DNA of 64,000 nucleotides from Rhodospirillales bacterium (GCA_023898805.1 CP060260.1:1425656-1489655); one strand, 5' to 3'; positions 31,756 through 48,946 are shown, counted from the stretch's first letter. Numbers and translations: made by a program. Notes: generated by a model not told the origin, from the sequence alone.

Positions 31756-31830
31756 TGGTGGGCACTGCAGGGATTGAACCTGCGACCCCCACCATGTCAA
31801 GGTGATGCTCTCCCGCTGAGCTAAGTGCCC
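31756..31830 (-). tRNA. tRNA-Val (anticodon GAC), CCA encoded
   Basis: Hand-folded cloverleaf: acceptor GGGCACT/AGTGCCC, D stem GCTC/GAGC, anticodon stem TCACC/GGTGG with loop TTGACAT, T stem GCAGG/CCTGC with loop TTCAATC, discriminator A, then CCA; 75 nt. Confidence 0.95.
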
Positions 31831-35706: not shown

Positions 35707-37244
35707 GTGAATTCGCATACAACCGCCGTCAAAGGGGCGCCACCCTTTGTCCACGAAAATCGCTTCGACCTTGCCATCATCGGTGGCGGGGTGAACGGCA
35801 CCGCCATCGCGCGCGACGCGGCCGGGCGCGGCTATCGCGTGGCGTTGTTTGAAAGCGGCGATCTGGCCTGCGCGACCTCCTGCGCATCGACCAAACTGAT
35901 CCATGGCGGGCTGCGCTATCTCGAATACGGCGAACTGCGTCTGGTCAAAAAGGCGCTGGCGGAACGCGAGGTGTTTTTGAAAACCGCCCCGCATATCGTA
36001 AGCCCGATGCGTTTTGTCCTGCCGCTGACCGACGGCGCGCGCCCGGCCTGGATGATCCGCCTTGGCCTTGCCCTGTACGATCATCTTGCGCGGCGCGACG
36101 TGCTGCCGGATTCGCGTCGGCTTGACCTGCGCGCCGACGCGGCGGGTGCGCCGCTGTTTGCCAATATGCGCACGGGCTTTGTCTATGCCGACGCCCGCGT
36201 CGACGACGCGCGGCTGGTCGTGCTTCAGGCGGTGGACGCCGCGCGCAATGGCGCGCAGATTTTCACGCGCACCCCTGTGCGCGACCTGACGCCGGACGGG
36301 GCGGGGGGCTGGGACGTCGAAACCGAAACCGACCGCCGCTTTCATGCGCGCATGGTGGTCAACGCGGCCGGGCCCTGGGTACGTCGCGTGCTGGAACGCA
36401 ACGGACTGGTGGAGGGGGACACCCCGAAAATCCGTCTTGTGCGCGGATCGCACATCGTTGTCCCGGCGATTTACGATGGCGATCAGGCCTATCTGCTGCA
36501 ACAACCCGACGGCCGCGTCGTGTTTGCAATCCCGTACGAAGGCCGCTTCACCCTGATCGGCACCACCGATGTCGAACACACCGAAGGACCGGACGTGCCC
36601 CCTGCCTGCACCCGCGACGAGGCCGAGTATCTGTGCGATGCCGTCAACCGTTTCTTTACCCGCCAGACCCTGCCGCAGATGATCGTCTGGTCCTATTCCG
36701 GCGTTCGCCCCTTGTTTGACGACGGCAGCGGACGTGCGGCCGCAGTCACGCGCGACTATCACCTTTATCGCCAGTCGGTAAAAAACGCGCCGCTGCTTTC
36801 GGTTTATGGCGGAAAGATCACCACCGCGCGGATGCTGGCCGAAACCGTGACCGACGACGTCGCGCGCACGCTGGACGCCGCGATCGGCCCGCGTCCGCCG
36901 GCATGGACCGCAGGCGTGCCACTGCCCGGCGGCGAATTGCCCGAAGGCAGCCTGTATGAATTCACGGGCGATCTTTGCGCCATGTATCCGTGGCTTGAGG
37001 CCGCGACCATCGAACGTCTGGCGCGCGCCTACGGCACGCGCGCGCTGCGTATTCTGGGCGGCGCGCATCATCCGTCCGATCTTGGTCGCGATTTCGGCGC
37101 GGGTCTGTACGAGGCCGAAATCGCATATCTGTGCGAGGCCGAATGGGCGCGCACGGCCGAGGATATTCTCTGGCGCCGCACCAAGCTGGGCCTGCACGCC
37201 GGGCACGATACGCGCACGTTGCTCGAACGCCATTTGGGGGAAGC

Positions 37245-38693: not shown

Positions 38694-38778
38694 TATTTAC
38701 AAAATTTGCGAATTTCTAAACCCGCGTGTTAGCGTTGTTTTTGACATACGGTTCTTTTCTTTGGGGGAAACAAAGACA

Positions 38779-39546
38779 ATGAAAACCAGCACCGCGCTTT
38801 CGCGCCCGATCACTCACGAACGAATGCAGGCCATGGGGGCCCAGCCGCAGGATATTGCGCGCAAAATCGCGCTGGCGTGGATGGACACGCAAAGCGTCGA
38901 CGCGGCGCTGATGAATGCGGGGCGCGGCATCGCGCTCTGGCATGTCGCGCCTGCGGTACAAAACGCCGCCGCCGCCGCCATCGCCGACCTGATCGACGCG
39001 GACACGCGCGTCATCACCGCCGGTATCCAGCCCTGGGGCTGGATGGTCGCCTCAGGACTTTCGATGGCCGATATCGGTTGCGTCTATCTGGGCAAGCAGC
39101 TGCCGCGCCGCGTCATGCACGTATCGGCCGAGGATGTGACGCAGCATTTTGAAAAGGATGCAATCACGATCGTCGCCATGCATATCGAATCCTCCAGCGG
39201 CTGGAATGACGTGCGTACGATTTCTGCTGCCGCCGTGCGTGCGCAGACACCGATGCTGATGGTGGTGTCGACCGCCGTGCCGGCACCCGAGGGCGTGACC
39301 ATCGAACTTGCCAGCGACTGGAACGTATTGACCGCCAACTTGCGCGACGGGATGCGCGCGGTGCGCGATATGGGGACGATCCGCGTCGTCGCGATTCAAG
39401 ACATGCCGCTCGGCGGCATCGAACGCACGATGATGGAATCCGCCGCGATGTCGCCTGAATCATGGGTGGCGGCGATGCAAAAAAACAACGACGGGGCTGA
39501 ATCAGCGATGAACACCGCCTATCAGGCACCCGTCGAGTCTTTCTAA
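38779..39546 (+). CDS. Hypothetical protein (about 255 aa), no recognisable domain
   Basis: Long ORF preceded by an AT-rich region and GGGGGA about 10 nt upstream of ATG 38779. The track start at 38761 is TTG. I do not recognise any motif. Confidence 0.55.
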   Translation: MKTSTALSRPITHERMQAMGAQPQDIARKIALAWMDTQSVDAALMNAGRGIALWHVAPAVQNAAAAAIADLIDADTRVITAGIQPWGWMVASGLSMADIGCVYLGKQLPRRVMHVSAEDVTQHFEKDAITIVAMHIESSSGWNDVRTISAAAVRAQTPMLMVVSTAVPAPEGVTIELASDWNVLTANLRDGMRAVRDMGTIRVVAIQDMPLGGIERTMMESAAMSPESWVAAMQKNNDGAESAMNTAYQAPVESF

Positions 39547-39561
39547 CCTTTCAGCAGTTCT

Positions 39562-40119
39562 TCAGGCCGCTTTCGGTACGTGTCCGGATCTTGGGGCATC
39601 GGTCATCCGATCACGCAGAATAAGGAAGGCCCATAACCACAGGGCACCATTATTCCGGCGGCGTTCGGCGCGGGGTTGCGTGCGGACATCACGCTTCCTC
39701 TCTTCTTTCGCCCAAAGCTTGTGTGTCGCAAGGTCTTTGCGTGTCGATTCCTCGCGCTTGCGTTTAAGCATCGCCAGCCTTTCGGCATAGGCGCGCTCCA
39801 ACGCGCTGATCTGTGTTTCCAAAGCCTCGGCCATCGCGTCGGCGCGGCCGAACAGGGCGATCATGCGCGCAAGGTTTGCGCGCGCGGCCAGAATGCTGCG
39901 GTCAAGCATCGTCAAAACCGGATCGGTGCGCATGAACGCATCGCTGACGGTATTGCCGTCTTCGGCCAAAGGCATCCGCTCGACGATCTGGCTTACCAGC
40001 GCGAGCGAGTCTTCCAGCGACTGGCGCGCCTGACCTCGTGCCGCCTGTTCATCGGCAGGGCGCGTGGTCTTGCGCGTGGTCTTGTCGGTGGTGCGAATGG
40101 CTTTCATATCTGATTGCAT
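39562..40119 (-). CDS. Hypothetical coiled-coil protein with a C-terminal hydrophobic anchor
   Basis: 185 aa: basic N-terminus, heptad-like helical middle (EALETQISALERAYAERLAMLKRKREE) and a C-terminal hydrophobic stretch GALWLWAFLIL. No convincing RBS. Confidence 0.45.
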   Translation of the reverse strand: MQSDMKAIRTTDKTTRKTTRPADEQAARGQARQSLEDSLALVSQIVERMPLAEDGNTVSDAFMRTDPVLTMLDRSILAARANLARMIALFGRADAMAEALETQISALERAYAERLAMLKRKREESTRKDLATHKLWAKEERKRDVRTQPRAERRRNNGALWLWAFLILRDRMTDAPRSGHVPKAA

Positions 40120-40311
40120 GATAAGGCCAAGAAATGAAGGAAGGCTTAATACATCTGCATTGGTCCGAGCCCTAACGTCGGCCTTCTAACGAAGCCCCCC
40201 GGCCAGCGTTGCGTTTTTGTACCGCAGATCTTCTAACGCGAAGACCCCCGGCACGGGGGAATGTGCCGGGGGCCAAAGGGGGTTACCCTTATTCCGTTGT
40301 AAATGCGCGCC

Positions 40312-40716
40312 TTATGCGGCGTCGCGACGGCGTCTTGGCGCCGGCTTTTCTCGTGTGGCATTCGGCTGGGGCAGGGGGTGGGTGATCGCGCCCGGTGCGC
40401 GCATTTCGGCCAGATAGGCTTCAAGCGCCTCGTGATAATCGTGGTTGACCATCACATACAGGCGCAGCGCATCGCGCAGATGGTCGCGCGCGAATATGGC
40501 TTCGTAACCCAAATAAAGCTTTTCCGTCGCATCGCTTTCGGCGGCGATCTTCTCGCTCAGGGTGCGGTAATCGCGGATCGCCGCGCGCAGCTTTTCGCGG
40601 TGGCGGGTCAGGATTTCGGCCATTTGCTTGACTTCGACATATTGCCACGCCTTGACGCGCGTTTCGCGCAGGCGCGCGGTCAGTTCCGCAAAGCTGCTGT
40701 TCGATGTTTTTTTCAT
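40312..40716 (-). CDS. Hypothetical small helical protein (about 134 aa)
   Basis: ORF trimmed to MKKTSNSS at 40716. Predicted all-helical with an Arg-rich tail. Lies divergent from the XRE gene across an AT-rich region. Confidence 0.45.
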   Translation of the reverse strand: MKKTSNSSFAELTARLRETRVKAWQYVEVKQMAEILTRHREKLRAAIRDYRTLSEKIAAESDATEKLYLGYEAIFARDHLRDALRLYVMVNHDYHEALEAYLAEMRAPGAITHPLPQPNATREKPAPRRRRDAA

Positions 40717-40885
40717 ACCCGTAGTCGCCGTTTGTCCGCTAATATCGACTTTATAAAAACAAAAGTTTCTCTTTTTAAATTTCCATATCGTATAACCGCT
40801 CGACAGGACGGGAGTCAAGTTCTAAATTGAAGCAAGTTAAAAAAACATTTTTTCTTTCTTGCGTTTTTGCGAATTCATCATTATG

Positions 40886-40891
40886 TATAAT
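40886..40891 (+). promoter_or_regulatory. Consensus -10 box (TATAAT) in the AT-rich divergent promoter region 40717..40944
   Basis: TATAAT lies 54 nt upstream of the XRE gene start. No well-spaced -35 hexamer: TTGCGA gives a 13-nt spacer and TTGCGT gives 21 nt. Confidence 0.35.
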
Positions 40892-40944
40892 CCCCAACGA
40901 AAAACTTTGACCGGGGCAAACTCAGGGGTATAGAACGCTTCAAG

Positions 40945-41643
40945 ATGACCATTTCAACAGCACAAATTCGCGGCGCGCGCGGCCTTCTCGATTGGTCGCA
41001 GGCGGAGCTGTCCCGTCGCACCGGCATCTCCACCACCTCGATCGGTAATATCGAAAGCGGGCACACCCAGGCGCGTGAAAGCACGCTGGCTGTCATTCGC
41101 GCGGCGTTTGAACGCGGCGGCATCGACTTCATTGGCAAGGAAGGCGTGCGCATGCAGACCGAGTTTCTGCGCACCTATACCGGCACCGAAGGGTTCAAGG
41201 ACTTCATGAACCACCTGTACGAAACCGCCAAGGCCTATGGCGGGGAAATCGTGCTGTTCAACGCACACCCGGAAGAATGGCAGAAATGGCTGGGTCAGGA
41301 ATGGTTCGCCATGCACTCCAAACGCATGGCCGATCTGGGTGACAAAATCAGCTTCCGCATCACCGCCAACTCGGGGGAGCAGAATTTCATCTCGCGCGAA
41401 TTTGCCGAATATCGCTGGTTCCCCGAGGAATTCATGTCGCGCCGGGCAATGTACGCCTATGCCGATTACATCGCCTTCGTCAATTTCGAGGAAAGCAACG
41501 TTTCGGTCATCGCGCTCAAACAGACGGATTTTGCCAACGCGTTCCGCGTCCTGTTCAATATCGCGTGGGACAAGGTCGCGTTGAAGCTCGACGAAAACGC
41601 GCCTGAAATCACGACGAAAACCAAGGCCAAAGCCGCGTCATGA
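40945..41643 (+). CDS. XRE/Cro-family HTH protein with an uncharacterised ~165-aa C-terminal domain
   Basis: N-terminal HTH IRGARGLLDWSQAELSRRTGISTTSIGNIESGHTQARESTL. I do not recognise the C-terminal domain. Confidence 0.8.
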   Translation: MTISTAQIRGARGLLDWSQAELSRRTGISTTSIGNIESGHTQARESTLAVIRAAFERGGIDFIGKEGVRMQTEFLRTYTGTEGFKDFMNHLYETAKAYGGEIVLFNAHPEEWQKWLGQEWFAMHSKRMADLGDKISFRITANSGEQNFISREFAEYRWFPEEFMSRRAMYAYADYIAFVNFEESNVSVIALKQTDFANAFRVLFNIAWDKVALKLDENAPEITTKTKAKAAS

Positions 41644-42890
41644 CTATGATGTTTAAACCCGGTCGCGAACGATACGTTCCCCTGTTCGTCGGGGGCGACA
41701 TCGTCGCGCAGTCGATTTTAAACGAATTCGTGCCGTTCCTGATTGAGAACGGTTTTACACCTGTCATTTATTTGCCGGCGTACAATCCGGTGAAAGGGGC
41801 GGTTTCGGCTTCGGTTTCGCCCGCGCGACACACATTCAAAAAGGCCAGTAAGGCCAGCAAGTCGATGGTTCTGCCGGACAATCCGGAGATCGCGCGTTTC
41901 CTGAAGCTGGAACGTAAAATCCTCGACGAGGCCGTATTCCCCTTCCTCAAACAAGAATCCTGCCCCGATGCGAAAATGATGACGCCGCATCAGCTGGCGC
42001 AAAAATACGGTCTGACGATCAAAGACGTTACTAACGTCAACGCGCCTGAATTCCTTGACGAGATTCGCAGCCTCAAGGCTAAAGGGCTGGCTGGTGCGCT
42101 TTCCATCCGTTGTTTCCAGATTTTCAAAAAGCCGATTATCGACTTGATCAAGGCCAGCAACGATCCTGCCCATCTGGATCCGGAAACGCTGGGTCCGGGC
42201 GAGCCCTTCTTCATGAACCTGCATCCCGGTCGTTTGCCGCAATATCGCGGCGTGTTTTCAACGCTCCGGGCTATGGCCGACTTTGCGCGCGCGGCGAGCT
42301 TGTATTACTTTGGTGCGACGTTGCACGATGTGAACACGGGAATCGATACAGGCCTGACTTATAAAATGAAGGGTCTGCCAATCAAATCGGACGAGTCGCT
42401 CTATGCGCATAACCTGCGTCTGGTGCTGGTGGCGACCAAGCTTCTGCACGAATTCGTTTCCGAATGGCAGGGCTTGAGCGCATCCACCAATGAGATGAAG
42501 GAAGGCATACCGCTGCACCAGCAGATAAGCCATGCTGGCGACAAGGCGGAATATTTCACCAACCCAACCAACGGCGAAATGGACGAAATGAAAGCCATGG
42601 GAATTCGTCTTGCCTCGGTCGATGAAGTAAAAACCGCGCTGATCGAACGGTACAGCGTCCCCGGCAGCGACCACGCAAAGCGTCTGGAAAAAGTCATGGA
42701 CCGATGGATTGCCGATCAGGGCATCGATCCGGGTCAGGATTATGCCGGCCCGGCGCGCACGGTGGCTGCTTTCGATCGCGGGCCGTCCGTTCGCTCTGCG
42801 CGTCGCGTCGTGTGCGGCCGCCCGCCCGTCAACGATCCGGGGAAGCCGCCTACTGGTACTACGGGTGGGCGCATCGCCTTGAGAGTGTGA
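41640..42890 (+). CDS. Divergent formyltransferase-fold protein (formyl_trans_N-like core; no Fmt C-terminal domain)
   Basis: FFMNLHPGRLPQYRG (Asn/His) and GATLHDVNTGIDTG (Asp) match the Fmt/PurN/ArnA catalytic signature. ATGA overlap with the XRE gene's stop. Confidence 0.7.
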   Translation: MTMMFKPGRERYVPLFVGGDIVAQSILNEFVPFLIENGFTPVIYLPAYNPVKGAVSASVSPARHTFKKASKASKSMVLPDNPEIARFLKLERKILDEAVFPFLKQESCPDAKMMTPHQLAQKYGLTIKDVTNVNAPEFLDEIRSLKAKGLAGALSIRCFQIFKKPIIDLIKASNDPAHLDPETLGPGEPFFMNLHPGRLPQYRGVFSTLRAMADFARAASLYYFGATLHDVNTGIDTGLTYKMKGLPIKSDESLYAHNLRLVLVATKLLHEFVSEWQGLSASTNEMKEGIPLHQQISHAGDKAEYFTNPTNGEMDEMKAMGIRLASVDEVKTALIERYSVPGSDHAKRLEKVMDRWIADQGIDPGQDYAGPARTVAAFDRGPSVRSARRVVCGRPPVNDPGKPPTGTTGGRIALRV

Positions 42891-42894
42891 TTTT

Positions 42895-42929
42895 AAACAA
42901 GCGCCCCGGTTTCGGGGCGCTTGTTTTTT
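42895..42929 (+). terminator. Rho-independent terminator
   Basis: AAACAAGCGCCCCG-gttt-CGGGGCGCTTGTTT, then a T-run to 42929. Confidence 0.9.
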
Positions 42930-42954: not shown

Positions 42955-44949
42955 ATGACGACCGTGATCTCCGCCCCCGATTTTTCCACCTATACGAATT
43001 TTGACTGGATTGCCGCGATCCGCGAACGCATTGCGCTGGCGCGCGGTCGCGTTGCAGAAATAAAAGCGTCGGGCAAGACCGATTTTTCACTGATCGCGGG
43101 GCTTGAAACCTGTGACGAGGAACTGGGGCAGGTGCTGGAGGTTTTCTACAGCCTGCTGGGCACCGACACGACCGACGCCATGCAGGCGCTGGCACAGGAA
43201 ATCGGTCCGATATCCGCTGAATTTTCGTCCGAAATCAGTCAGGACGTCGAATTGTTCCGGCTTGTCGACGCGCTCTGGGCAAAGCGCGATGGCATCAAGG
43301 ATCCCGCGCAATATGCCTGCCTTGAAAAACACTGGAAGGGTTTTGTGCGCAACGGTGCGCTGCTTGATGATGCGGGCAAGGCCCAGTTAAAGGCCATTGA
43401 CGCCGAAATGTCCAAGCTCGGCCCCAGATTTTCCGACAACATGCGCAAAAGCGCCAAGGCCTATCAACTGGTCATTACCGCGCCTGCCGATCTTGCGGGC
43501 TTGCCGGAAAGCGCCGTCGCCGCCGCGCGGGAGGAAGCGGAGGCCAAAGGCCACAAGGATGCCTGGCTGTTCACGCTCGACCATCCGTCCTACGTGCCGT
43601 TCATGACCTATGCCGACAACCGCGAATTGCGCGAACAGATGTGGCGCGCCTTTGCCGCGCGCGCCTACGGCGACGATTTCGACAATCGGGCATTGGCCAA
43701 GGAGATCGTGGGTCTGCGCCACGCGCGCGCCCGGCTTTTGGGCTATGCCGGTCACGCCGATTTCGTGCTGGAACGACGCATGGCCGAAACGCCGGAACGA
43801 GTTTTCGCGTTTCTTGATCGTCTGAAATCCGTGGCGCTGCCCGCCGCGCGGCGGGAGCTTGAGGAATTGCGCGCCTTCGCCGGCACGGACTTGAAACCGT
43901 GGGATGTCGGGTATTACAGCGAAAAACTCAAACAGAAAAAATATGCTTTCGATTCCGAAAGGCTGCGCCCGTATTTCCCTGTCGACGCGGTCCTCAAGGG
44001 CTGCTTTGCGCATTGCGAAAAACTGTTCGGTTTAAGCTTCCGCGAAAGCGGCGCCTATTCCGTCTATCACCCGGATGTCAAACCCTTCGATGTGGTGGAC
44101 AGCGCAACCGGCACGCCGCTTGGCCTTTTATATGCCGATTTCTTCCCGCGCGATGGCAAGAATTCCGGCGCGTGGCAAGGCACGTTCCGCGAACGGCGGA
44201 TCATGCGCGACGGCAATACCGGCCTGCCGCTTTCGGTGATCGTGTGCAATTTCACCAAGCCGACGAAGGACAAGCCATCGCTGCTCTCGTTCGACGAGGT
44301 CGAAACGTTGTTCCACGAAATGGGCCACGCCCTGCACACCTTGCTGACGACCATCGACTACCCGTCGATTTCCGGGACGTCCGTATATTGGGACTTCGTC
44401 GAACTGCCCAGCCAGATCATGGAAAACTGGCTGACCGAAAAAGAAACGCTGGATATTTTCGCGCGGCATTACGAAACCGGTGAAACGATCCCGCAACAGC
44501 TTATCGATGCGCTGAAAAAATCCCAGAATTTCATGGCCGGATGGTTCGTGATGCGGCAACTGCAATTCTGCCTGCTGGACATGACATGGCATACGGCCGA
44601 CCCGGCGTCGATCGGCGACGTTCTGACGTTTGAACGCGGCGTGCTCGACCCGCTTGCCTTGCTGCCTTACGAGGCGGGATGCGTAAGCACGTCCTTCAGC
44701 CACATTTTCGCAGGCGGGTATTCGGCCGGATATTACAGTTATCAATGGGCGGAGGTGCTGGACGCCGACGCGTTTTCGCTGTTCAAGGAAAAGGGCCTGT
44801 ACGACCCCGCCACGGGCCGCGCCTTCCGCGACCGCGTTCTGGCCTTGGGCGGTTCGCGCCCGCCGCTTGATCTGTTTCGTGACTTCCGTGGGCGCGAACC
44901 GGACCCGGATGCGTCCTTGCGCCGACGTGGGCTTTTGGACGCGGCTTAA
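42955..44949 (+). CDS. M3-family zinc metallopeptidase (peptidyl-dipeptidase Dcp / oligopeptidase A type)
   Basis: HEMGHALH zinc motif with a downstream Glu, about 664 aa. Start trimmed to ATG 42955. Confidence 0.88.
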   Translation: MTTVISAPDFSTYTNFDWIAAIRERIALARGRVAEIKASGKTDFSLIAGLETCDEELGQVLEVFYSLLGTDTTDAMQALAQEIGPISAEFSSEISQDVELFRLVDALWAKRDGIKDPAQYACLEKHWKGFVRNGALLDDAGKAQLKAIDAEMSKLGPRFSDNMRKSAKAYQLVITAPADLAGLPESAVAAAREEAEAKGHKDAWLFTLDHPSYVPFMTYADNRELREQMWRAFAARAYGDDFDNRALAKEIVGLRHARARLLGYAGHADFVLERRMAETPERVFAFLDRLKSVALPAARRELEELRAFAGTDLKPWDVGYYSEKLKQKKYAFDSERLRPYFPVDAVLKGCFAHCEKLFGLSFRESGAYSVYHPDVKPFDVVDSATGTPLGLLYADFFPRDGKNSGAWQGTFRERRIMRDGNTGLPLSVIVCNFTKPTKDKPSLLSFDEVETLFHEMGHALHTLLTTIDYPSISGTSVYWDFVELPSQIMENWLTEKETLDIFARHYETGETIPQQLIDALKKSQNFMAGWFVMRQLQFCLLDMTWHTADPASIGDVLTFERGVLDPLALLPYEAGCVSTSFSHIFAGGYSAGYYSYQWAEVLDADAFSLFKEKGLYDPATGRAFRDRVLALGGSRPPLDLFRDFRGREPDPDASLRRRGLLDAA

Positions 44950-47899: not shown

Positions 47900-48577
47900 A
47901 TGAAACGATTTCTGATTTTGGCCATGCTGGCCTCCCTGTTTCCCGCTGTGCTGTCCGCTAGATCCGCACTTGCGATGACGGCGCAGGAACTGGGCGCGCT
48001 GTACAGTCCTTATACCGGCGATTCCACCATGGCGCTGGACCAGCCGCATCGCACGGTCACCGAGATCGGGTCGTGGGTATCCGAGATCGTGGGCACGGTA
48101 TTGAAATTCGCGTCCGGAAACACGGGCCGCCATCTGACCGTTATTCGCCCGTATTTCACCGATCAGGGCTACGCCGGTTTCGCGGGATTTTTGAACGCAC
48201 AGGGTTTTGGCGATGCGATCGCCAAACAAACTCTGGGTATGGACGCCACGCCGGATGCGGCGCCGACCCTGCTGGGGCAGGGGGCGTCGAACGGCGCCTA
48301 TGCCTGGGCGTTTGAGGTGCCATTAACTCTGGTCGTTTCAAGCGTACCGGGCAAACCCCCGGTCAACCGCGACGTGACCATCCGCATACAGGTCACCCGT
48401 TCGCCCAAAGGGGCGGACCCGCACGGTGTGCTGATCGACAGCTGGGCCGCGTTCGACGGCGTGGATACGTTCAGGAAGACGGGTTCCGGTTTGGGGCAAG
48501 CCCCGTTGCAAGCCCCGTTGCAAGCCCCGGCGCAAGCCCCGGCGCAAGATAGTGGACAACCGGCACGAACGCCTTGA
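47900..48577 (+). CDS. IcmL/DotI-like domain protein with signal peptide and a repetitive QAP tail
   Basis: Signal peptide MKRFLILAMLASLFPAVLSA. The core pattern (W..E.....F.......YFT..G...F...L, G.YAW.FEVPL, V.V.R.P) resembles the DotI/IcmL family. Confidence 0.55.
   Translation: MKRFLILAMLASLFPAVLSARSALAMTAQELGALYSPYTGDSTMALDQPHRTVTEIGSWVSEIVGTVLKFASGNTGRHLTVIRPYFTDQGYAGFAGFLNAQGFGDAIAKQTLGMDATPDAAPTLLGQGASNGAYAWAFEVPLTLVVSSVPGKPPVNRDVTIRIQVTRSPKGADPHGVLIDSWAAFDGVDTFRKTGSGLGQAPLQAPLQAPAQAPAQDSGQPARTP
48497..48548 (+). repeat. 12-bp tandem repeat x4.3 inside the IcmL-like gene
   Basis: caagccccgttg x2, caagccccggcg x2, then caag, encoding QAPLQAPLQAPAQAPAQ. Confidence 0.95.
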
Positions 48578-48930: not shown

Positions 48931-48946
48931 TTAAAAGGTAAGGCTC

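Follow-up and report, generated by a model that had tools for sequence, protein, structure and literature searches.

We analysed a stretch of 64,000 nucleotides (nt), referred to as the window, from a metagenome-assembled genome (MAG) designated 'Rhodospirillales/Alphaproteobacteria bacterium' (locus tags H6865_01165-01175; NCBI assembly recovered, GCA_020638235.1), and in it the region from 38694 to 40944, which lies between glpK and a gene encoding an XRE-family regulator. The region carries three open reading frames (ORFs), namely ORF1 (38779-39546, plus strand), ORF2 (39562-40106, minus strand) and ORF3 (40312-40716, minus strand), the latter two separated by a spacer with several small hairpins. 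An earlier note on this DNA, made from the sequence alone, had located the same three ORFs and recognised no family in them. Both statements were borne out, the second by searches of Pfam, NCBIfam, PHROGs and PADLOC, which returned no match for ORF1-3. The note had also read the three genes, together with the XRE gene and the adjoining gene of a formyltransferase-like (FT-like) protein, as a foreign islet of about 4.2 kb. Comparison with related genomes suggests a different history: the region is probably a vertically inherited, lineage-specific neighbourhood of Micavibrio-like Alphaproteobacteria that was rearranged by an inversion, and the spacer probably combines the terminator array of ORF3 with a promoter-like block of ORF2. 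The features of the locus are real and are now largely explained.

Gene order in the window and in relatives

The related loci are coded L001, L002, L005, L007, L008, L009, L014, L020 and L027; the depth of comparison is limited, as scans of metagenomes and genomes with an ORF3 profile gave few loci (6 and 5, respectively). Every relative recovered has the order glpD-glpK-ORF1(+)-ORF2(-)-gapR(-)-dotI/icmL-like(-)-COQ9(-)-ABC1/ubiB(+)-DDAH(+)-one or two small ORFs(-)-M3 peptidase(-)-FT-like(-)-XRE(-)-ORF3(+)-dsbB(-)-...-exoD-sucA, which is common to L001/L007, L002/L005, L008, L009 and L027. The window reads ORF2(-), ORF3(-), XRE(+), FT-like(+), M3(+), DDAH(-), ABC1(-), COQ9(+), DotI-like(+), GapR(+), dsbB(-), exoD, sucA, the identities of COQ9, DotI_IcmL, GapR, DsbB, ExoD, DDAH and M3 being confirmed by Pfam. 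A block of ~8.8 kb from gapR to ORF3 (about 40.16-48.94 kb) is flipped in the window relative to all other lineages, and this inversion sets ORF3 head-to-tail upstream of ORF2. Because ORF2 adjoins gapR, on the uninverted left side, in five lineages, and dsbB comes next after ORF3 in all 11 non-window lineages that reach the 3′ side of ORF3, the arrangement of the window is derived by parsimony.

Both breakpoints could be confined to short intervals. The left one lies at 40152-40182, where homology to the ORF3-dsbB spacer of L007 stops and homology to the gapR-ORF2 spacer starts; the interval contains a third mini-hairpin with a CGUUAG loop (40165-40181, minus strand). The right one, placed by Pfam identities and the gene order of the relatives, falls into the 16-nt gap (48931-48946) between the stop codons of gapR (48930) and dsbB (48947). 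Long inverted repeats were searched for at the two breakpoints and none was found.

The ORF2-ORF3 spacer and the probable ORF3 terminator

The 192-nt spacer would be a composite in which the right ~130-140 nt, read on the minus strand, form the 3′ untranslated region (3′-UTR) of ORF3 and the left ~30 nt belong to a block upstream of ORF2. Over ~130-140 nt from the ORF3 stop onward, the spacer shows homology to that between ORF3 and dsbB in the relatives, and a ~54-nt core, consisting of ACGGAAUAAGGGUAAYCCCCUUUGG and the hairpin, is about 90% identical to that of L007, the closest relative, with ORF3 proteins 59-60% identical. The remainder, a conserved block at 40120-40151 (minus strand; TATTAAGsCTTCsTTCATnnnTTGGCCTTATnATGC in alignments) with a -10-like TATCAT, is found in the relatives between gapR and ORF2, downstream of the gapR terminator.

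Read from ORF3 along the minus strand, the array begins with an upstream hairpin (40276-40290, AAGGG-UAACC-CCCUU), whose C-run (40278-40282) provides a first C-motif. The putative ORF3 terminator hairpin follows at 40243-40274, 37 nt past the stop codon, with a 12-bp stem (GGCCCCCGGCAC/GUGCCGGGGGUC) and the loop AUUCCCCC, in which a run of five C occupies 40255-40259; its stem shows covariation, and the hairpin scores 44.8 bits with our covariance model. Where L007 has its terminator U-tract/A-tract (UUUUUCUUUAAAA), the window has a mini-hairpin, UCUUC-GCGUUA-GAAGA (40229-40244). Tandem unit 1 contains a small hairpin, UGCG-N9-CGCA (40210-40226), whose homologue in the L007 alignment is UGCG-AUACAGA-CGCA. 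Tandem unit 2 (40183-40203) consists of a G-run (40195-40200), apparently a remnant of the terminator 3′ arm, and the mini-hairpin CUUC-GUUA-GAAG (40183-40194); it can be aligned both to unit 1 and to the 48-nt units of L007, where the corresponding unit is present in 2.6 tandem copies.

These features account for the motifs that had attracted attention before. The earlier note described correctly both mini-hairpins (40183-40200, 40229-40249) and the GC hairpin of 10 bp (40245-40254 paired with 40263-40272). Its three copies of CTAACG are likewise present, at 40172, 40233 and 40186, the last having been placed one position too low at 40185. The hexamer is rare across the window yet clustered in the spacer (6 copies against 15.6 expected by chance, 3 of the 6 in the spacer), and the exact 9-mer CTTCTAACG is restricted to the two mini-hairpin sites. 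The GC hairpin had been said to have no U-tract, a statement that resulted from reading the wrong strand: on the minus strand, which is the sense strand of ORF3, it is followed by UCUUCGCGUU and in the relatives by a proper U-tract. Seen on that strand, the CTTC-TAAC-GAAG motifs with their C-runs would represent the G-rich 3′ arm of the terminator followed by the former U/A tract, tandemly duplicated and diverged. The suggestion that the hairpins act at the RNA level, as binding or transcript-stabilising elements, pointed in the right direction; more specifically, they constitute the probable terminator and 3′-UTR of ORF3, part of which is repeated in tandem.

Two to three diverged copies of the terminator 3′ half are present in the window; TRF, a tandem repeat search, did not detect these units, which became visible only by alignment to L007. 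Their number varies from 2.6 copies in L007 and the two to three of the window to none in several lineages. In the distant loci L014 (6409-6640) and L020 (219-420), a second terminator 3′ half, CCCCGUUCUUAGAGACCC plus a U-tract in L014, is located about 130 nt downstream of the first; duplication is therefore not confined to a single lineage.

A hairpin of 10-14 bp follows ORF3 in 12 lineages, and in the relatives scanned a U-tract (UUUUUCUUU, UUUUUUU and similar) lies 3′ of the stem. As MAFFT and RNAalifold applied to the full set of 12 sequences left the stems out of register and predicted 3 pairs only, conservation was assessed by a loop-anchored count, an in-register alignment of 7 sequences and a covariance model. 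In the manual count over the 12 lineages, 131 of 132 stem cells were canonical and compensatory double changes occurred at 11 of 12 positions, compared with a shuffle mean of 0.68; none of 2000 shuffles reached the observed value. The 7-sequence alignment had 98.8% of cells paired (80.5% when shuffled, 38-52% in slid registers) and double changes in 8 pairs. The covariance model built from these 7 sequences recovered 5 held-out orthologous sites, each in its expected position and orientation, with 20.7-28.1 bits and E-values from 1.6e-6 to 6e-4. The sequence of the stem is thus almost fully turned over and yet still paired. The comparison shows that the ORF3 transcription unit has this element as its conserved 3′ end and that the element was carried along with ORF3 in the inversion, and we infer with good confidence that the hairpin is the intrinsic terminator of ORF3. 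The inversion put this array between the now co-directional ORF3 and ORF2, where the degraded U-tract of the window may let some transcription read through into ORF2.

Some points weigh against this account of the spacer and its history. The U-tract of the window is weak, with 6 U in the 10 nt of its tail UCUUCGCGUU, and a simple terminator scan did not call the hairpin. The folding energy of the whole spacer is unexceptional, with z values of -1.7 (minus strand) and -1.4 (plus strand). Finally, the polarity of the inversion, with the derived state in the window, rests on parsimony.

The terminator is distinguished by its loop, which contains CCCCC in all sequences, one truncated sequence included, in the forms AUUCCCCC, UCCCCC or GCCCCCC. 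A UUCCC(C) tract a few nt 5′ of the terminator stem is kept in 12 of 12 lineages. In 220 kb of these genomes, 271 hairpins resemble terminators; a CCCC loop was found in 9, and since 8 of the 9 are ORF3 terminators, the C-rich loop is not a genome-wide style. With low confidence, we take the invariant and presumably single-stranded C-tracts to have a function of their own, which by analogy with cuckoo/CcsR and 6C RNAs would most plausibly be pairing with G-rich, Shine-Dalgarno-like sequences, or else the binding of a protein. The competing explanation, to which we give a sizeable chance somewhat below even, is that the loop has no such function: the element would be a slowly evolving intrinsic terminator beside a promoter, and the tandem units neutral products of slippage. 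This agrees with the hairpin and U-tract found directly past the stop codon in the relatives, with tandem units conserved neither in sequence nor in number, and with the lack of a distinctive target in our searches. Less easily reconciled with it is the contrast between a stem turned over by compensatory changes and a loop C5 and upstream UUCCC fixed in 12 of 12 lineages. Transcription termination normally puts no constraint on the loop sequence, and C-rich loops occur in only 1 of about 263 other terminators of the same genomes.

Much less probable is a third explanation, in which the array is a dispersed repeat of REP or MITE type, or an independent small RNA (sRNA) gene beside ORF3, and perhaps mediated the inversion. 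It would fit the tandem duplication of the units in three lineages and the position of the left breakpoint at the edge of the array; the other breakpoint (48931-48946), however, has no inverted copy. Furthermore, the covariance model detected a second copy neither in the 64-kb window nor elsewhere in about 220 kb of related loci; what else it matched were ordinary terminators with different loops. The element always lies 15-45 nt past the ORF3 stop on the sense strand.

Composition, distribution and origin of the locus

The idea of a foreign cassette holds that ~4.2 kb from glpK to the M3 peptidase gene were acquired horizontally, with the hairpins as part of a mobile unit, and three proteins without a family match, AT-rich intergenic stretches and the slightly lower G+C content at third codon positions (GC3) of the FT-like gene (0.66) could speak for it. 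A change of composition downstream of glpK, which the earlier note had reported, does exist in the two intergenic promoter regions, which are AT-rich, but does not extend to the ORFs: ORF1-3 have a G+C content of 0.60-0.63 and a GC3 of 0.69-0.77, against a GC3 of 0.72-0.76 in flanking housekeeping genes, and their index resembling the codon adaptation index (0.60-0.73) is inside the range of the neighbours. The AT-rich stretches are themselves conserved, with a mean column identity of 74% over 4 lineages for the glpK-ORF1 interval and 63% for the XRE-ORF3 interval, while the proteins of these lineages are 43-60% identical. Being conserved at the DNA level across diverged lineages, these spacers are therefore regulatory regions and not borders of an island.

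All five genes of the supposed islet (ORF1, ORF2, ORF3, XRE and FT-like) are syntenic in the relatives recovered. No presence/absence polymorphism with conserved flanks was observed, as every related locus recovered has the genes in the conserved order. As noted before, there is no integrase and no flanking tRNA gene; the sole tRNA gene of the window, tRNA-Val at 31756-31830, is 7 kb away. Flanking direct repeats were not found either. The 2.25-kb region gave no blastn match in plasmid and phage collections, and in PHROGs and PADLOC the helix-turn-helix (HTH) domain of the XRE protein alone matched. Since the genes are syntenic, conserved and typical in composition, the cassette reading fails by the standard that the earlier note had itself set; we consider horizontal acquisition of the unit very unlikely and effectively refuted. 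Still less credible is that the ORF3-ORF2 adjacency is an assembly artefact of a MAG, because six independent assemblies from different samples and pipelines, deposited at NCBI, ENA (three) and Logan (two), have the identical junction and 192-nt spacer and thus exclude an assembly error as the source of the inversion.

All homologues found for the three proteins belong to one small clade of Micavibrio-like Alphaproteobacteria. Among 5.8 billion proteins, 6 clusters were obtained for ORF1, 2 for ORF2 and 15 for ORF3, and contigs of up to 1.94 Mb bear the ORF proteins of the window. The species-representative genomes with ORF3 include 'Micavibrio sp. UBA6145' and four alphaproteobacterial MAGs, which places the clade near the Micavibrio group. 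The main value of these results is corrective: the putative islet appears to be core, clade-specific genome of uncultured relatives of the predatory Micavibrio, and a local inversion, which can be dated and brought a terminator next to a promoter, would explain its odd spacer. They also provide three conserved orphan protein families with clear orthologue sets, linked to glpK, to gapR and to the XRE/formyltransferase pair, as targets for work on a poorly known clade; one of them, ORF1, may have a fold like that of thiamine diphosphate (ThDP)-dependent enzymes.

Orphan proteins and neighbouring genes

ORF1 encodes a conserved orphan α/β protein of 255 amino acids (aa), always directly downstream of glpK. 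The interval between the two genes (38694-38778, plus strand) contains a promoter-like block at about 38700-38738 (CAAAATTTGCGAATTTCYAAACC-GCGTGWTAGCGTT), present in 6 of 6 lineages, and a ribosome-binding site with five G (UUUGGGGGAAAC, 38760-38771), present in 5 of 6. Six homologues with 43-60% identity were identified. A HMMER profile scan of 1.84 billion representatives returned 11 clusters only, all of about 255 aa, that is, full-length orthologues only and no bridge to a known family.

An AF2 structure model of ORF1, of moderate to low confidence (mean pLDDT 61), was compared with the PDB using Foldseek. The top 36 matches were E1-α subunits of ThDP-dependent enzymes, i.e. of pyruvate and branched-chain 2-oxoacid dehydrogenases, the best with E = 3e-6, a TM value of about 0.5 and a root-mean-square deviation of 7-8 Å, figures to be read with the pLDDT of 61 in mind. 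The predicted α/β fold thus resembles that of these subunits, but ORF1 is about 100 aa shorter and has no gene for a β-subunit partner nearby. Asp208 and Asn236-Asn237 are invariant in the six closest homologues, but not across an alignment of 14 sequences. The canonical cofactor motif GDG-X(25-30)-NN is absent, as ORF1 has no GDG, and the D...NN spacing falls in a helix instead of the canonical strand-loop context of GDG...NN. Pfam, a PDB-profile search and hhalign against SucA, the ThDP enzyme of the window itself, were all negative. On the basis of the model, ORF1 can at most be called ThDP-fold-like.

ORF1 and ORF2 are convergent, with stop codons 15 nt apart (39546-39562), compared with 14-22 nt in the loci of the closest relatives. 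As terminators cannot be accommodated in so short an interval, the 3′ ends of both transcripts probably overlap.

For ORF2, the earlier note had given 185 aa. The ATG at 40119 that yields this length is part of a conserved block of non-coding DNA; the likely start, homologous to that of the orthologues, is the ATG at 40107, which gives 181 aa as in the NCBI annotation. The product is a fast-evolving helical protein with orthologues in 5 lineages (40-57% identity), encoded convergently to ORF1 in all of them and following gapR in the relatives. The C-terminal hydrophobic anchor ascribed to it reduces to a patch of 11 residues, the maximal 19-residue Kyte-Doolittle mean being 0.93-1.30 across five orthologues. 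This patch, NNGALWLWAFL, is conserved, as is the C-terminal -AA. Within the reading frame, a 12-nt tandem repeat (GCGCGTGGTCTT, 2.1 copies, 40060-40084) encodes KTTRKTTR. ORF3 also ends in -AA; a ClpXP-type degron was considered for the two proteins and judged weak, since 7 of 81 ORFs of the window end in AA.

ORF3 encodes a strongly conserved helical-hairpin protein of 134 aa, for which 33 columns are invariant in 15 sequences and whose basic tail is predicted to be disordered. Its AF2 model consists of two long antiparallel helices (pLDDT 97-98), for which Foldseek returned generic coiled-coil hairpins only, all with E > 0.1. The gene is always transcribed divergently from that of the XRE-family regulator, and the hairpin protein is presumably co-regulated with the XRE/formyltransferase pair. 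The intergenic region (40717-40944), a likely divergent promoter-operator, has 58 invariant columns in 5 lineages, with TTGACT-N17-TATACG on the ORF3 side and ATTATGTATAAT on the XRE side; a promoter-like site called at 40800-40828 on the plus strand is on the strand opposite to the TTGACT box.

The conserved partners of ORF3 in the relatives, the XRE-family regulator (40945-41643; HTH_3, E = 6e-8) and a divergent protein of the formyltransferase superfamily (41640-42890), are encoded by overlapping genes on the plus strand (40945-42890). The latter has a PurN-like core (NLHPGRLPQYRG...GIDTG) in which N-x-H...D-T-G is kept. The XRE/ORF3 module can exchange its enzyme partner, since L009 (8974-11446) has a Methyltransf_33 gene in place of the FT-like gene, besides a duplicated XRE gene. 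In the window, the FT-like gene is followed by a clean intrinsic terminator (AAGCGCCCCGG-UUU-CGGGGCGCUUGUUUU, 42885-42927), which has a weak, chance-level Rfam match to sau-6072.

Further into the inverted block, the relatives have one or two small ORFs (124-266 aa, no Pfam match) between the DDAH and M3 genes (L002 15373-16411; L007 4566-5797). These are absent from the window, where the DDAH and M3 genes overlap by 4 nt (44946-44949). The DotI/IcmL-like gene (47900-48577), related to an inner-membrane component of type IVB secretion systems, stands alone between COQ9 and gapR in the window and all relatives, with no other gene of such a system nearby; it contains an in-frame 12-nt tandem repeat (GCAAGCCCCGTT, about 4 copies, 48496-48543). 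Elsewhere in the window, CGCATTCCTGCCGGGGGAATGGCATCGC occurs twice on the minus strand, at ~60572 and ~61822, about 1250 nt apart, which suggests a local duplication or paralogous genes.

The C-rich loop in comparison with known RNAs

The ORF3 element resembles ordinary Rho-independent or tandem terminators of convergent genes, as it has a GC-rich hairpin right after the stop codon and, in the relatives, also a U-tract and a position between the convergent ORF3 and dsbB. It differs from them by a loop and an upstream C-tract that are invariant across lineages with proteins 45-60% identical and, in the window, by a mini-hairpin in place of the U-tract. One possible class of targets for the C-tracts was noticed. 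The ribosome-binding sites of glpK (37233-37242) and ORF1 (38760-38771) share UUUGGGGGAA, which is complementary to the UUCCCCC of the ORF3 terminator loop. The GGGGGAA site is kept in 3 of 4 lineages for glpK and in 5 of 6 for ORF1, and few other genes of these loci have it at their starts; the ribosome-binding site of glpK is also inside the coding sequence of glpD. That these two sites are targets of the C-rich motif of ORF3 is speculation drawn from this complementarity. A duplex-energy scan of the start regions of the window lends it no support, as no target was singled out and the ORF1 site ranked 39th of 967 candidate starts. The loop could also be conserved because the terminator as such needs it, or because a protein binds there in cis, instead of serving as a seed in trans.

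Among known RNAs, the closest parallel is the cuckoo/CcsR group (Rfam ar14 and related; ccaF1-ccsR1-4 locus of Rhodobacter sphaeroides), in which adjacent hairpins are located in the 3′-UTR of a small protein gene, the stems vary by compensatory mutations, the C-rich anti-Shine-Dalgarno motif of the loop alone is conserved, and the modules are prone to tandem duplication (PMC4615179; PMC8034643). The ORF3 element shares the alphaproteobacterial host, adjacent 3′-UTR hairpins, C-rich loop, compensating stems and tandem duplication. However, its loop is YCCCCC(C) and not the CCUCCUCCC of cuckoo, and the motif is universal only in the terminator hairpin, with a second C-tract in a small hairpin loop or linker, whereas cuckoo has 2-4 motif hairpins. 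In contrast to the CIN1 subgroup, ORF3 is not a DUF1127 protein, as it gave no Pfam match above noise and forms a 134-aa two-helix hairpin. The Rfam models ar14, ar15 and ar35 gave no match at E <= 10 on the spacer, nor at E <= 1 on 36-44 kb.

A second parallel is the 6C RNA of Actinobacteria (RF01066), whose C-rich loops bind G-rich sites of mRNAs without a chaperone (PMC6486639). GC-rich stem-loops with loops of five or more C are common to both, and the hairpin of the window partially matches the 6C model (model positions 38-68) with 19.6 bits, the gathering threshold being 47. The match covers a single hairpin of the model, the phylum is another, and the ORF3 element is the 3′-UTR and terminator of a gene instead of a free-standing sRNA gene. 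At permissive thresholds, Rfam gave sub-threshold, chance-level matches only, and 6C is kept as an analogy. Membership in cuckoo/CcsR or 6C was ruled out by the different loop motif, the lack of a covariance-model match and the lack of a DUF1127 neighbour.

The 3′-UTR element of ORF3 is accordingly described here as a candidate regulatory RNA motif without an Rfam family. In its most far-reaching form, which we regard as unlikely though worth stating, it would be a C-rich-loop, anti-Shine-Dalgarno RNA specific to the Micavibrio clade, an independent analogue of cuckoo/CcsR and 6C that resides in the ORF3 mRNA or is released from it; its UUCCCCC would pair with the GGGGGAA ribosome-binding sites of glpK and ORF1 and so couple the XRE/ORF3 module to glycerol metabolism and ORF1. 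If functional, the C5-loop terminator would extend the theme of C-rich-loop, anti-Shine-Dalgarno RNAs, to which cuckoo/CcsR and 6C belong, to a new alphaproteobacterial lineage.

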